A DNA stretch of 32,481 bases. Source: Patescibacteria group bacterium. Lineage in GTDB: Bacteria; Patescibacteriota; Minisyncoccia; Phycocordibacterales; JBBUBG01. A model generated the notes under the pieces. That model ran no database searches. It was given only the letters and a program-made list of their open reading frames with translations, and was not told the origin of the DNA. The first letter of the stretch is position 1. The number at the start of each line of letters is the position of its first letter. The stretch lies in assembly GCA_040384765.1 (NCBI GenBank), contig JAZKIQ010000004.1, forward strand, positions 17,916 through 50,396. Direction: 5' to 3'. Position numbers and translations under genes: made by a program. Of this stretch, positions 19,679-32,170 are shown piece by piece.

Positions 19679-20053
19679 TTAACGAGCGTGCTCTATGCAG
19701 GTGAGGGCGGCGGGGTTTGCGTGAAGGCGCTCTATAGCGATCTCGTGCAAATCTCCTCCAATAGAGCACGTACCGTAGCTTCCTTCTCCTATTCGCTTGA
19801 GTGCTTCGTTCACTTCACTCAGGCGCTTTTCAAGATTTGCCTCTACTGCTGAGCGCTCTTCGAACTGTTCAATATCAGTAGCTGCATCTTGTGGGTCGGC
19901 CTCGCGCTCAGGACCTGCGGCGCCTTCCTCTTTAATATCTGACTCGGTTGCAACCCAGTCCCCTGCCTCGTTTACTCCAAGGTGGCCTAGCTCCGCTTCG
20001 AGCTTCTTCTTTTCTGCGAGGAGTGCATTTTTCAGTTCTTCGGTATTCTGCAT
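19679..20053 (-). CDS. DksA/TraR family protein
   Basis: Coiled coil with DxxDxA tip (DPQDAA); C-terminal ALKRIGEGSYGTC...ERLHANPAALTCIEH. Confidence 0.88.
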   Translation of the reverse strand: MQNTEELKNALLAEKKKLEAELGHLGVNEAGDWVATESDIKEEGAAGPEREADPQDAATDIEQFEERSAVEANLEKRLSEVNEALKRIGEGSYGTCSIGGDLHEIAIERLHANPAALTCIEHAR

Positions 20054-20126
20054 AGTGATATGTAAATAGGTTGCTTATATGATATCAGACGGGAAGGAGA
20101 GATAAAACTATAAAAGTAATCTCCTT

Positions 20127-20250
20127 AAGGCGTTCCTCAGCGCCCAGATTCAAGGCGCTAAGGAGAGATAAAGCTGAGCTGTAGATGGACCTACTGCGAA
20201 GCTTTTCTCGACGAAGGCAACGATGAAGATGGGATGCTGAGGGATGCCTT
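20127..20250 (+). repeat. 124-bp structured dispersed repeat, family A, copy 2
   Basis: AAGGCGTTCCTCAGC...GCTGAGGGATGCCTT terminal stem; core aligns with the reverse complement of 13257-13380. Confidence 0.75.
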
Positions 20251-20252
20251 GG

Positions 20253-20937
20253 TACAAAAAGACCCCCAATCGTCGAGTGTCGTATGGGCTAATCTCTTTT
20301 GTCGGGCGTGACAGATGGCAGAGAAAAGCTCAATGGAGCTCATTTTCGAGTGGGGATCTTGTAGATCCGGCGTAGTAGAGGAATAAGAAGCTTGAAAGTT
20401 CATGGGAACTAAAGCTTCGTTGGATATCGTGGCTGACGATATCCGAAGGTTTGCCAATGGATGGCAGTGAGTTGCTTAGCGTTTTACTCGTGAGAGTGGT
20501 GTGCTAGCTATCACGGACCTTAATAATAAGTCCAATGGATGAGACACAATGATTTTGACAGGATGACCTGTCGAGTCTTGAACTCCAAGAAGAGTTCCGG
20601 GAAGAAATCTCGATGCTCGCTCGAGAACTTTTCTCGGAACTCTTCACTATCTTATTCGTATACTACGAAACGGATGTGAAGGTACTAATAGATCTGAGAG
20701 AAGTGTAGCAGGCAGGAAAAGGAGCGCAACCCCTTGCCTGTGGATAAAGGACATAAAGGTCTTTTGTGTATGTCCTTTATGCATACTGATCTGCCCTACC
20801 TTCTACTGCGTCACTGGCTGAGGAGCTTGATTGCGACATCAGGCAGCAATCAAGAGCCGGACTGAACGAAGGTGAAGGAGGCGGGGTCGCGGCCAATTTT
20901 AGAAAAAATTGAGCTGTGACTGCAGCAGACTCGAAAA
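20253..20937 (+). ncRNA. Candidate large multi-domain structured non-coding RNA, family not recognised
   Basis: No credible ORF; at least 12 helices including nested long-range ones; G-U pairs favour the + strand; one GNRA-capped stem (ACTC-GTGA-GAGT). Confidence 0.6.
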
Positions 20938-20948
20938 ATTGCTTACTA

Positions 20949-21896
20949 TCACTGTGTTACTGGCTTCGGAGTATGTAGGCGTCCCAAAACCTCATAAAAC
21001 ACAACGTCGCTTTGGGTTATGAGGAGGGTTTTTCGGTCGAGAAAGCTATAGAGCAGGATCGAGTTTCCCCCGGCATCCACTTCTCGCCTTATGTCGGTAT
21101 TGCGCAGGGTGTCGTCTTTCCAGGAGAGCGAGCCCGCGAGCTGCTCGTTTGGATTGCCCCCAAGGAGCGGAATAATCTCGTAATGAAGGCGTTCCTCCCA
21201 GGTGAGCATGCCGGCGTAGGCGCTTTCGTACGAATCGAGAGAGAGAAGGAGAAAAGGCGACTTTTCAGAGCTTGTGTATACGCCATAGAGGAAAGATCGC
21301 CCGAGTGATCGCACAAGGGGGCTTGGTGCCTGAGGCAAAAGTGCTGAAAAGAAGCTTTGTGCATCAAGGATCTGCTCGGTGCTGCCATTTTTGATGCTGA
21401 AATAGAGGTATTCGAGAGTGTTTTTCTTTCCCGATACTGCATTTCTTGCCTCCCCGATCACTTTTTCGGCATCGGCAAGGCTTTTTGTCGCGGAAAGGTC
21501 TACTTGAGTAGACTTTTCGGCAAAGATGATCGGCTCGGGTGGCGTGAGGCCTCCAGCGGTCTCTGGCGCATCGGGGTATACAATGTCATACACAAAAGCG
21601 ACGAGAAAAAGCAGGGCAAAAAGGGCCACAATGACTGCACCGACGGTTTTTAGCGAAGGGATCTGGAATCCTTGACCCAACACGCCCCCTCGGGCCGCCC
21701 CTGTGCTTCGCCGCCTCTTCTCCTCAGCGAGCGCAATATCCGTCTGGGTGATATTTTTTGTTTCTATCTCGGAGGCGATATCTGTACGAAAGGTGCGCAT
21801 CACCGACTGCTTTGGCGGAAGAATCCCCGAAGAGTTCTCTCCGGATGTGGGGATAGGGCTTGGGTTTGGCTGATTTGGGTTAGTGTCGGGGGGCAT
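20949..21896 (-). CDS. Hypothetical single-pass membrane protein
   Basis: 315-aa ORF; Pro-rich N-terminus, MRTFRTDIA motif, one TM helix, extracytoplasmic domain. Confidence 0.85.
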   Translation of the reverse strand: MPPDTNPNQPNPSPIPTSGENSSGILPPKQSVMRTFRTDIASEIETKNITQTDIALAEEKRRRSTGAARGGVLGQGFQIPSLKTVGAVIVALFALLFLVAFVYDIVYPDAPETAGGLTPPEPIIFAEKSTQVDLSATKSLADAEKVIGEARNAVSGKKNTLEYLYFSIKNGSTEQILDAQSFFSALLPQAPSPLVRSLGRSFLYGVYTSSEKSPFLLLSLDSYESAYAGMLTWEERLHYEIIPLLGGNPNEQLAGSLSWKDDTLRNTDIRREVDAGGNSILLYSFLDRKTLLITQSDVVFYEVLGRLHTPKPVTQ

Positions 21897-23596: not shown

Positions 23597-24205
23597 TTAT
23601 TCGCTCGCGCTTTCTCGCGCTTCGCCTCCGCCCATCTCCTTTGGTCCCTTGTCTCGTCCCCCACGTCGGCGATGCCCTTGCCCTGAAGAGGGAAAGCGTC
23701 GGAATGTGCCTACCAAGTAGCGCTCAGGGGATTCGCCAAGATCAATAAAGTCGTCTACCACTTCGCGCAGTTTGCCCGATGTGTTCTTTCCAAATGCGAG
23801 CACCTCCACTTGCGCCTGTGCTTTTAAATATTCAACGAGCGGTACATAGTCGCCATCGCCCGAGGCAAGGATGATTACGTCGAGTTTTGGGGCGAGCTTG
23901 ATAGCGTCTACAGCGATACCCACATCCCAGTCTGCTTTCTTCGCTCCTCCGTAGAAAATCTGGAGGTCTTTGGTCTTCGTCTCGATACCGATCTTCTCGA
24001 GCGCTTCAAAAAACCCTTTCTCTTCCCCTGACTCTGTGGTGATGACGTATGCGATTGCGCGCACAAGGTGTCGCCCCGCTACGGCATCTTTGAGGAGGTT
24101 TGCGAAGTTTACCCGTGCGTTGAACAGGTTCTTCGCTCCGTGGTAGAGGTTCTGTGCGTCAATAAAAACTCCGACTCGCTGATCTGCATGCTTAACGATT
24201 GCCAT
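23597..24205 (-). CDS. NYN domain (LabA/DUF88, PIN-like) putative ribonuclease
   Basis: VFIDAQNLY, KKADWDVGIAVD, LASGDGDYVPL, DDFIDL; start placed at ATG 24205. Confidence 0.93.
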   Translation of the reverse strand: MAIVKHADQRVGVFIDAQNLYHGAKNLFNARVNFANLLKDAVAGRHLVRAIAYVITTESGEEKGFFEALEKIGIETKTKDLQIFYGGAKKADWDVGIAVDAIKLAPKLDVIILASGDGDYVPLVEYLKAQAQVEVLAFGKNTSGKLREVVDDFIDLGESPERYLVGTFRRFPSSGQGHRRRGGRDKGPKEMGGGEARESASE

Positions 24206-24289
24206 TCTATATGAAAATAAAAACAAACACTTTTAAAAAGGAAACATACGATTCTGCCTTTAGTGTAGCACCTTCTTTTGTGCACTCAA

Positions 24290-24334
24290 AAAGAGAACCG
24301 GCTGCCACCTAAAAGGTGGCAGCCGGTTCTCTTT
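24290..24334 (-). terminator. Terminator-like hairpin after rpsO
   Basis: Perfect 21-bp stem AAAGAGAACCGGCTGCCACCT-AAA-AGGTGGCAGCCGGTTCTCTTT. Confidence 0.8.
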
Positions 24335-24344
24335 ACCTCGGTAG

Positions 24345-30881: not shown

Positions 30882-30957
30882 CGTAGTTCTGGTTACATAT
30901 GTAACATGTAAAGATAAGTTTCACGTGAAACATACCTGTTTAGTTACATATGGAACT
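30843..30957. promoter_or_regulatory. Cluster of four parS-like palindromes
   Basis: AGTTTCACGTGAAACA (30917-30932, 15/16 to TGTTTCACGTGAAACA), TGTTACATGTGCAACA (30843-30858), GGTTACATATGTAACA (30891-30906), AGTTACATATGGAACT (30942-30957). Confidence 0.8.
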
Positions 30958-30967
30958 AAAGTATAGG

Positions 30968-31049
30968 TGGGCACGGGGAGAGTCGAACTCCCACCTCTTG
31001 CGAGATACGCTTCTGAGACGTACGCGTATACCAGTTCCGCCACGTGCCC
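30968..31049 (-). tRNA. tRNA-Leu(CAG)
   Basis: GGGCACG acceptor stem, anticodon arm TACGT-CTCAGAA-GCGTA, long variable arm, GTTCGACTC T-loop; CCA not fully encoded. Confidence 0.95.
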
Positions 31050-31099
31050 TAGCTATCCATTCAATCCTCCATATAGGTGCTTAAGTACCTATATATGCA

Positions 31100-31220
31100 A
31101 TGCACTCGGAGGGATTCGGTCACAGCTCGGTTTCTGGTGAAACCGGCCGCGACCCCGCCTCGCGCCATCGCGCTCCGGCTTTCGAACCCTCCTCGAGGCG
31201 CTTAAGGGCGCCTTTCTTGA
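31100..31220 (-). mobile_element. tRNA-Arg-associated structured insert (family B) with duplicated tRNA 3' end
   Basis: 19-bp direct repeat ATGCACTCGGAGGGATTCG at 31100-31118 and 31220-31238; core GTCACAGCTC...GGCCGCGACCCCGCCTC. Mobility is inferred. Confidence 0.7.
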
Positions 31221-31292
31221 TGCACTCGGAGGGATTCGAACCCCCAATAACAGGTTCGAAGCCTGTCGTGATATCCATTTCACTACGAGTGC
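31221..31292 (-). tRNA. tRNA-Arg(TCG)
   Basis: GCACTCG acceptor stem, ACAGG-CTTCGAA-CCTGT anticodon arm, GGTTCGAATCC T-arm. Confidence 0.95.
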
Positions 31293-31360
31293 CCAAATTT
31301 GAGTATAGCAGGGGAGTCCCCGTTTGTCTTATTTTTTTGAAACGGTATACTGTCTCCATT

Positions 31361-31434
31361 GCGGCTATGGTTTAATGGTAGAACAGGTCCTTGCCAAGGA
31401 TCAGATTCGGGTTCGATTCCCGGTAGCCGCACCA
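31361..31434 (+). tRNA. tRNA-Gly(GCC)
   Basis: GCGGCTA acceptor stem, GGTCC-TTGCCAA-GGATC anticodon arm, GGTTCGATTCC T-arm, encoded CCA. Confidence 0.96.
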
Positions 31435-31437
31435 AAA

Positions 31438-31572
31438 TATGGGAATCTCCAGGGTTCGAGTCACAGATAATTTTCTCCTGAAAATTTCTTCGACCCCGCC
31501 TCAGTCGCCTTCGCTCCTTCCGGGCTTGATTGCTGCCTGATGTCGCAATCAAGCCCGGTAGCCGCACCAAAA
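31438..31572 (+). mobile_element. tRNA-Gly-associated structured insert (family B) with duplicated tRNA 3' end
   Basis: 19-bp direct repeat CCCGGTAGCCGCACCAAAA at 31419-31437 and 31554-31572; core GTCACAG...CGACCCCGCCTC. Mobility is inferred. Confidence 0.7.
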
Positions 31573-31652
31573 ACGAGGGTAGAATAGGTAAAAAATTTGG
31601 ACAGGTTATGCAAAAGACGGCATCAAAGAAAGTAAGGTTGACTGTTAACACC

Positions 31653-31682
31653 TGTGGATAAGTTGGGGGATAGAGTGGATAA
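31653..31682. promoter_or_regulatory. Tandem DnaA-box-like sites
   Basis: TGTGGATAA (perfect, 31653-31661), GGGGGATAG, AGTGGATAA (31674-31682). Confidence 0.5.
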
Positions 31683-31762
31683 AGGACGTCCGAAACGAGC
31701 CTGAGCGGAGAGGTAAAAAGAGGCATTTTCCCGAGATACCCTTATTTTACAACGATTGAGAA

Positions 31763-32170
31763 ATGGACAAGCCCGATCACCTTCGTATCGGCCAGATGGG
31801 AGAAGAGCTCGTTTGTCTTTATCTGAGAAGAAGGGGATATCGCATTATTGAGCGAAACTATTTGAGAAAATGGGGAGAGATAGATATCGTGGCAGAGAAG
31901 GAGGGGACTGTTCATTTTGTTGAGGTAAAATCGGTCTCCCGAGAAACCCTTCCAACAGAGGAGATGCTTAGAAGGGGTGAGGGAGGATACAATCCTGCAG
32001 AAAATATGCACCGCTCGAAGCTCGAAAGACAGCGCCGTGTCATAGAGACATACCTTTTAGATCGATTTCGGGACCAAGAGCCATCCTGGCAGGTCGATCT
32101 TGCTTCCGTGTATTTGAGCTTGTCCTTAAGGAAAGCAAAGGTGGATCTCCTCGAAGATATTGACCTATAA
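31763..32170 (+). CDS. yraN: YraN/UPF0102 family PD-(D/E)xK nuclease-like protein
   Basis: GQMGEELVCLYLRRRGYRIIERNY, GEIDIVA, FVEVKS. Confidence 0.93.
   Translation: MDKPDHLRIGQMGEELVCLYLRRRGYRIIERNYLRKWGEIDIVAEKEGTVHFVEVKSVSRETLPTEEMLRRGEGGYNPAENMHRSKLERQRRVIETYLLDRFRDQEPSWQVDLASVYLSLSLRKAKVDLLEDIDL

Follow-up and report, generated by a model that had tools for sequence, protein, structure and literature searches.

Large structured RNAs such as OLE, ROOL, GOLLD, HEARO, and raiA have been defined by covariation across many genomes, and REP/BIME, ERIC, Correia, and other elements resembling miniature inverted-repeat transposable elements (MITEs) form clusters of interspersed structured repeats. 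A further group, the tRNA-like minihelix elements, includes the tRNA-like domain of tmRNA and the mitochondrial "t-elements." Here, we compare with these systems an 895-nucleotide (nt) spacer (positions 20054-20948) from the genome of a member of the Patescibacteria (G000; 822,710 bases, 99.8% complete). The spacer lies within a 32,481-nt stretch of contig C4, referred to below as the window, between genes for a DksA/YteA-like protein and a 315-amino-acid (aa) protein. An initial annotation had proposed that it contains one large plus-strand RNA of ~690 nt or, alternatively, a nest of palindromic elements; the genome size is in keeping with the "CPR" label used there. We found that the spacer is a noncoding composite: repeats form both of its ends, the two repeat families are structured on the plus strand, and the core between them is unique, restricted to its lineage, and retained between strains. 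Our preferred interpretation, which we hold tentatively, is a lineage-specific array of plus-strand RNA-type modules with a constrained unique core.

Composition of the spacer

A BLAST search of the spacer against its own genome returned two repeated segments, 20143-20233 and 20825-20921, which belong to repeat families designated A and B. Covariance models were built from 18 A copies (model R2) and 19 B copies (model R1). The A copy of the spacer scored 104.8 bits against R2 on the plus strand and 12.5 bits on the minus strand, and the B copy scored 93.8 bits against R1 on the plus strand and nothing on the minus strand. The about 550 nt between them (20253-20803) comprise three further modules, D1, D2, and D3, referred to here as the core, which gave only generic hairpin scores (12 bits or less) against both models. 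The initial annotation had placed the start of the structured stretch at 20253, but it starts earlier, at the A copy (20131-20244); the fourth domain that it described, D4 (20803-20928), is structured as proposed, but is a copy of the B repeat (20822-20923). This copy consists of a 5' hairpin (CTTGATTGC/GCAATCAAG), a GCC...GGC helix around a small hairpin, a conserved stretch (GAGGCGGGGTCG), and a last hairpin closed by GUCG/CUGUGAC with an invariant G.U pair. The closing stem of D1 is like the termini of family A, yet D1 is not a member of that family. D2 is a junction of about seven local hairpins that is closed by a 31-nt imperfect terminal inverted repeat (20371-20401 and 20637-20667; 74% complementary), and no direct repeat flanking D2 was seen on reading the sequence.

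No second copy of the core was found in the genome by BLAST with a word size of 7, by fuzzy matching of the arms, or by nhmmer against 491 of the genome's own spacers. The sequencing runs listed as containing the sequence were three DNA runs of one study, of which run X1 may be the source of the assembly; read depth in the source run was flat over the core and rose over the bins containing A and B. When the full spacer was compared with 60 relatives, only the A and B pieces matched. A search of 400 genomes of the order with the core yielded no credible match: the 13 foreign matches were at most 39 nt long, with per-genome E values of 1e-4 to 1e-2, and 7 of them fell on the D3 hairpin. Collections of phages and plasmids gave no match to the core.

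At the gathering threshold, all 4227 Rfam families returned only 4 tRNAs from the whole window, and a scan of 19950-21050 at E values up to 10 gave only chance-level partial matches (RNase_MRP, 15.2 versus 50 bits; mir-2001; U6atac; 5.8S), so no known family covers the region. The initial annotation had found no signature of RNase P, tmRNA, or group I/II introns, and we agree. The genome encodes its RNase P RNA at C3:24776-25113 (114.9 bits) and its tmRNA at C6:10733-11127 (119.6 bits), and both identities were rejected for the spacer; a group I or II intron was rejected as well, with no intron family at E values up to 10 and no RVT_1 in the genome. 6S RNA was not found anywhere in the genome. 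Separately, the 23S rRNA gene of a relative from the same family (G001) has group I intron matches of 70.5 and 31.1 bits toward its 3' end (L205:339-1016).

The same gene order was examined in more distant organisms. A search with comM, the gene beyond the dksA-like gene, gave 80 metagenome loci, the best of only 58% identity, and 58 of these had a dksA-like match; removal of 10 loci without a matching open reading frame (ORF) and 2 without an upstream gene left 46. The equivalent spacer in these 46 loci measured -11 to 254 nt (median, ~36 nt). In three other genera of the family, the syntenic spacers (316, 22, and 447 nt) were unrelated to ours and folded unremarkably. Thus, no homologues upstream of dksA, as envisaged in the initial annotation, were recovered, and the short or unrelated spacers elsewhere indicate that this spacer expanded recently, within its own lineage, and does not represent a conserved "RNA upstream of dksA."

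Divergence of the core in a related strain

Contigs from a second run of the same study, X2, derive from a related strain or species and carry part of the spacer. Over 20218-20548, which runs from the last part of A through D1 and covers 60% of D2 from its start, the X2 sequence differed by 42 substitutions and 6 gap letters in 331 nt (~87% identity). Over comM, 35 differences were counted in 226 nt, and 29 of the 30 listed were spaced in multiples of three, at third codon positions, of which ~45% were changed. Insertions and deletions of 1, 2, 1, 1, and 1 nt were located within 20268-20518, with a 3-nt deletion in another contig; five of these six fell in loops, the junction, or bulge-equivalent positions, while the unpaired share of the core is only 29%. 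The one- and two-base indels rule out a coding function, and the X2 contigs indicate that the dksA-A-D1-D2 arrangement is not an assembly artifact. These comparisons argue for purifying selection on both the sequence and the fold of the core.

Folding of the spacer

The full spacer had a minimum free energy of -356.8 kcal/mol on the plus strand (z = -12.3; 20 shuffles) and -294.6 kcal/mol on the minus strand (z = -7.7). The strong fold, for which the initial annotation had suggested a comparison with shuffled sequence, is therefore real and far beyond chance. With 40 swap shuffles per module, generated by our own procedure, the plus/minus z scores were -9.3/-5.3 for A, -3.8/-4.9 for D1, -9.7/-10.3 for D2, -5.1/-3.9 for D3, and -4.2/-4.7 for D4. 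The minimum-energy structures contained 33 G.U pairs on the plus strand versus 11 on the minus strand for the spacer and 21 versus 7 for the core, which bears out the earlier statement that wobble pairs are G-U on the plus strand. Energy, G.U counts, and the fixed polarity of families A and B all favor the plus strand.

Every helix listed in the initial annotation is present at its position: ATCCG/CGGAT (20365/20671), CGTAGTA/TACTACG (20371/20661), GAATAAGA/TCTTATTC (20381/20650), GAAGGTA/TACCTTC (20678/20797), and the internal hairpins. The domain closures fared unevenly in the full-length ensemble. The closing helices of D2 were robust (pairing probability, 0.75 to 0.88), but that of D3, GAAGGTA/TACCTTC, had a probability of 0.01, and the 5' half of D1 paired preferentially with the leader at 20054-20124. 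In the same ensemble, 81% of expected pairs lay within modules, and the energies of the separate modules summed to -330 of the total -357 kcal/mol. As modeled, the modules are tandem, largely self-contained units and not one integrated four-domain fold, and D2 is the solid unique piece of the array.

The proposal of a single large RNA of ~690 nt is thus only partly supported. The extreme fold, the lack of an Rfam match, and the strand asymmetry stood; a single integrated four-domain RNA did not, because D4 and the neighbor of D1 are repeats, the modules are arranged in tandem, and the closure of D3 is unstable. A broader form of the proposal, in which ~800 nt of the plus strand (20131-20923) would be one transcript with the genus-specific 550-nt core flanked by the A rod as its 5' end and B as its 3' end module, seems to us unlikely. 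The A and B elements would then be RNA handles that this lineage of small-genome bacteria reuses, and B, as kin of an RNA embedded in tRNA minihelices, may be processed by tRNA enzymes. If this were true, it would represent a new modular way to build large noncoding RNAs.

Repeat families A and B

Families A and B are genuine conserved, multicopy, strand-specific families of structured elements. In G000, family A has 23 copies by nhmmer (E < 1e-5) and 29 by covariance model, and family B has 21 and 37 copies, respectively. In a sample of 101 genomes (G000, 3 relatives from its family, and 97 other families of the order), family A was present in 22 genomes and family B in 81 (80 of the 100 relatives), with 1 to 37 B copies each. 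Across an even sample of the phylum, B was detected at an E value of 1e-6 or less in 7 of 151 genomes, G000 included.

Covariation supported both structures. In alignments of foreign copies, which were fitted to the covariance models and so favor the structures, 90.9% of cells were paired for A (20 copies), with double changes in 31 of 35 pairs, and 99.4% for B (38 copies from loci of other genomes), with double changes in 13 of 17 pairs; controls with slid partners gave 32 to 55% paired. RNAalifold on plain MAFFT alignments of the own-genome copies recovered the same helices, and 22 of 33 pairs in A and 16 of 21 pairs in B were compensatory. The outer stems of family A vary among copies yet remain complementary, and one G.U pair of family B was invariant in all 38 foreign copies. 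Judged by these compensatory changes and invariant G.U pairs, A and B behave like RNA motifs. The internal loops of family A are conserved and purine rich and include a AAGGAGGTG stretch that resembles a ribosome-binding site.

The placement of family A follows a rule. In its own genome, the 3' end lies -14 to +1 nt from the stop codon of a convergent ORF in 18 of 23 copies, and two copies are in sense orientation. In other genomes, 13 of 17 copies were followed on the 3' side by an opposite-strand gene, which for 9 of them lay within -27 to +43 nt. Examples are G000 C5:152244-152357 and C1:156893-157006 and the foreign copy L205:1501-1612, which touches the 3' end of a 5S rRNA gene. Copies normally sit between codirectional genes and hence inside operon transcripts; to our knowledge, no terminator or REP model explains such antisense marking of gene 3' ends. 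The A copy of the window is an exception, with its 3' end 695 nt from the stop codon of the 315-aa gene and D1 to D3 and B in between. Spacers beside foreign A copies had z scores of -2.7 to +0.1 on the A strand in six of seven cases; the seventh, the 341 nt on the 3' side of the A copy of L221 (G037:C7), folded strongly, with z scores of -8.9 (A strand) and -4.5 (other strand).

Family B lies upstream of a codirectional gene in 21 of 28 foreign copies; the window copy faces a convergent gene, the minority orientation. The genes downstream have unrelated functions, and because of this heterogeneity a riboswitch was rejected.

Rfam 15 gave no match to either family, both in the window and at 18 further loci with copies of A or B, and no description of either appeared among the titles and abstracts searched; the supplements of structured-RNA surveys may contain related motifs. 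At two loci of G000 (C5:172722-172935 and C9:10860-11066), B runs directly into A on the same strand, and the last B hairpin stands in for the outer arm on the 5' side of A. A likeness between the 3' half of A (CGAAGGCAACGAAGGAGGTGGGG) and the center of B (CGAAGGCGACTGAGGCGGGG) suggests that both may descend from a common ancestor. The idea of an "A...B cassette" was rejected, as none of 48 foreign 3-kb loci contained both; the only other A-then-B pair in G000 has a 161-aa gene between its members.

The possibility of a nest of palindromes, raised in the initial annotation, fits the two ends of the spacer better than the single-copy D1 to D3. In its fullest form, this explanation states that the spacer is a functionless nest of MITE- or REP-like palindromic insertions, in which A, B, and the private elements D1 to D3 entered a tolerant spacer in succession, with the fold serving an RNA or single-stranded DNA propagation intermediate. 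Such an origin would account for interspersed repeats at both ends, for the tandem, self-contained modules, for the MITE-like bounding of D2 by its 31-nt imperfect inverted repeat together with long, near-perfect stems, and for a spacer that is absent or tiny in other lineages; the orientation of the B copy and the patchy distribution of A and B across genomes, like that of mobile DNA, fit as well. The core, however, fits less well. A (29 copies) and B (37 copies) are multicopy, as expected of interspersed or MITE-like repeats, but D1 to D3 are single copy in the genome and the source metagenome run and have no match in the 400 genomes or the phage and plasmid collections. PF07282 (TnpB), PF01797 (Y1), PF13358 (DDE_3), and PF00078 (RVT_1), the four families searched, had no match in G000, so the repeats have no obvious driver among them, in a genome that is 99.8% complete. 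Furthermore, third codon positions change about five times faster than the core in the X2 comparison and indels in the core avoid stems, unlike those in junk, and a 0.82-Mb genome would be expected to shed 0.9 kb of it. We consider a functionless nest somewhat unlikely.

Association of family B with tRNA genes

Of the 21 own copies of family B, 10 are no more than 300 nt away from a tRNA gene (G000 has 43 of these), while only 3.6% of the genome is that close. Six of the 21 follow a tRNA on the same strand at a distance of 14 to 84 nt, beyond a canonical terminator made of a hairpin and a T run. In these six, the B core stands between inverted and direct copies (8 to 18 identical nt) of the T-arm/acceptor 3' end of that tRNA, a layout that amounts to a "minihelix" of the neighboring tRNA whose T loop contains B. 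Six checked copies from other genomes are arranged in this way too, including copies downstream of tmRNA genes. Within the window, the B copy at 31088-31227 on the minus strand lies downstream of a tRNA-Arg gene. The copy in the spacer (D4) has no tRNA-derived arms. The embedding of B in minihelices points to an uncharacterized link between the repeat and the tRNA machinery or to tRNA genes as the targets of B.

Flanking genes and the minus strand

Coordinates of the modules, flanking genes, and tRNA-associated B copies are given in Table 1.

Table 1. Features of the spacer, its flanking genes, and copies of family B near tRNA or tmRNA genes (window positions unless a contig or locus is given)
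Feature	Position	Strand	Remarks
DksA/YteA-like protein gene, 124 aa	19679-20053	-	Start codon toward the spacer
Unique leader, 71 nt	20054-20124	.	Between dksA-like start codon and A copy
Family A copy	20131-20244	+	Long rod-like hairpin with purine-rich internal loops; outer stem to about 20125-20252
D1, single-copy hairpin module	20253-20363	+	Closing stem GACCCCC.../...GGGGATC
D2, single-copy 311-nt module	20365-20675	+	-130.4 kcal/mol, z = -9.7
D3, two hairpins	20678-20803	+	Minus-strand DnaA-box 9-mer and inverted repeat
Family B copy (D4)	20822-20923	+	93.8 bits against model R1
315-aa protein gene	20949-21896	-	TGA stop 28 nt from the end of the B copy
B copies near tRNAs, window	31088-31227, 31429-31586	-	Minihelix/tRNA proximity
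B copies near tRNAs, elsewhere in G000	C10:70993-71076, C5:175386-175476, C9:14193-14258, C2:17198-17278, C5:237-315		
Foreign loci with B near tRNA/tmRNA	L177, L178, L181, L184, L188		

The 124-aa protein fell below the curated cutoffs of the NCBIfam families that it matched, yteA (E = 1.9e-18) and DksA_like (E = 4.3e-11), and it matched Pfam zf-dskA_traR only at an E value of 0.037. The 315-aa protein matched no Pfam or NCBIfam family, and no relative was present in the genome contigs or metagenome contigs searched. Both genes are on the minus strand, so that the plus strand of the spacer is antisense to both, and the spacer contains no credible ORF, as the initial annotation had recognized on both counts. 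The longest run without a stop spans 94 codons, each of the three stop codons is in use genome-wide, and a coding gene or pseudogene was rejected even with any single stop codon reassigned. The description of the genome as having near-zero spacers was overstated: by crude ORF calls, coding sequence makes up ~89% of it and 92 spacers are at least 250 nt long. Other ORF-poor stretches of 680 to 970 nt, by the same crude calls, were seen at C1:65522-66492, C3:15800-16674, C10:26895-27747, and C1:84126-84912 and at 23665-24344 of the window; rRNA, small genes, or additional structured spacers may be among them.

The 315-aa gene, the spacer, the dksA-like gene, and comM run in that order, all four neighboring genes are on the minus strand, and no terminator-like site follows the 315-aa gene. 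The spacer could accordingly be viewed as a structured intercistronic or leader region of the minus-strand operon mRNA, with a role in processing, stability, or translational control, and read-through into such an mRNA is what the gene order and missing terminator would predict. The minus strand also folds beyond its shuffles (z = -7.7; D2, -10.3), A copies are normally inside operon transcripts, and the 316- and 447-nt spacers of two sister genera suggest a regulatory region. Yet G.U pairs favor the plus strand 3 to 1, the minus strand is 62 kcal/mol less stable, and only the plus strand is matched by the models of A and B, the polarity of which is set by G.U pairs that do not vary between genomes; in addition, the dksA-like genes of the 46 other loci have almost no spacer. 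A minus-strand function of this kind is, in our view, improbable.

DnaA box and inverted repeat in D3

D3 contains an exact DnaA-box 9-mer on the minus strand (TGTGGATAA as read on the plus strand; 20739-20747). It overlaps an inverted repeat of TAAAGGACAT (20744-20780) that forms the arms of the D3 hairpin, to which short similar matches exist in seven other genomes. The TAAAGGACAT motif recurs three to six times in large spacers of other genomes (loci L081, L082, L083, L084, and L090), and in L083 and L090 it stands beside DnaA-box-like sites upstream of UPF0102 genes. In two sister genera, G003 and G001, the syntenic spacers (L026 and L028), which are unrelated to ours, also contain boxes of the form TTATCCACA. 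These features invite an explanation at the level of DNA, namely, a palindromic protein-binding cluster for DnaA and another regulator or a site acting as single-stranded DNA, in which G.T wobbles would be tolerated, as DNA hairpins accept them too. Nevertheless, exact DnaA boxes number 17 genome-wide versus ~6 expected, which makes one box weak evidence, and a double-stranded operator has no need of the loops and wobbles seen in most hairpins of the spacer. The explanation also covers D3 only, and we regard it as very unlikely for the spacer as a whole.

A replication origin was rejected: within 2 mismatches, the spacer has a single DnaA box, the exact one, besides a weak one, with same-strand genes on both sides. 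Clusters of at least three DnaA boxes are located elsewhere, at ~18.5 kb of contig C6 and ~5.3 kb of contig C4. Elsewhere in the window, a parS-like palindrome (TGTTTCACGTGAAAC; ~30917-30932) adjoins a tRNA-Leu gene. One exact and one near DnaA box lie at 31653-31661 and 31674-31682, ~730 nt from the palindrome, and 31601-32000 has strong GC and AT skew (0.30 and 0.19). The region from ~30917 to 32000 could be origin proximal.

Discussion

The tentative interpretation that we favor is one in which a normally very short spacer has undergone lineage-specific expansion into a tandem array of five modules, A, D1, D2, D3, and B, which on this interpretation all fold best on the plus strand. The displacement of the A copy, 695 nt from its stop codon, suggests that the middle modules and B were added between that stop and a once-abutting A element; the array would thus have grown by insertions between the stop codon of the upstream gene and an A element of the kind that normally abuts such a stop. 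The core, chiefly D2, is most likely either a young noncoding RNA restricted to approximately one genus or a domesticated private element of the same kind. It would act as an RNA transcribed from the plus strand and would be kept under purifying selection.

Several observations weigh against this interpretation. D2 alone is about equally exceptional on both strands (z = -9.7 on the plus and -10.3 on the minus strand), and the plus strand is G rich (GC skew, 0.13 to 0.23), which by itself favors G.U pairs. Many stems are long and nearly perfect, a property expected in young palindromes more than in old RNAs. The estimate of constraint comes from one short contig of one run with an 80% identity floor, and recent strain exchange could mimic conservation, given the ~99% identity of a second X2 contig over 20432-20697. 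Consensus scans compared with shuffles detected no promoter or terminator signal in the spacer above chance; the one sigma-70-like match on the plus strand (GTGATA-17-TATGAT; 20055-20083) compares with 1.6 sites expected. Since no terminator follows the 315-aa gene, the minus strand is probably transcribed across the spacer as part of the operon. Finally, D3 may be a DNA operator rather than an RNA.

If the core does work as an RNA, it would be a rare example of a large structured RNA of recent birth in a streamlined genome (0.82 Mb), and its origin beside interspersed structured elements would still be visible. Families A and B merit description whatever the core is, B being present in up to 37 copies and absent from Rfam.

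With OLE, ROOL, GOLLD, HEARO, and raiA, the spacer shares a size of 550 to 800 nt, the lack of an ORF, a multistem junction (in D2), a very low folding energy, and the absence of an obvious neighboring-gene logic. However, no covariance model of this group matched at E values up to 10, and the core, unlike those covariation-defined classes, has no homologue in the 400 genomes of the order; its stems are long and near perfect, and its domains are tandem units. By these comparisons, it belongs to none of the described classes of large RNA. With regard to tRNA-like minihelix elements, the comparison concerns family B only. The B copy of the spacer differs in having no tRNA-derived arms; the likeness lies in the six own and six foreign copies in which the B core is set in an acceptor-plus-T-arm stem copied from the upstream tRNA or tmRNA gene. 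The resemblance to elements of the REP/BIME type is closer for the ends of the array: A and B are ~100 to 130 nt long, occur in tens of copies as imperfect palindromes in spacers at gene ends, are sometimes adjacent or fused, and are patchy among relatives. Unlike such elements, A and B have helices with compensatory changes and with G.U pairs that stay invariant in different families of an order, conserved purine-rich loops, and strict rules of strand and placement, with no transposase of the four tested families in the genome and with core modules that are single copy. The novelty of this locus therefore lies less in a new RNA of the OLE class than in families A and B.

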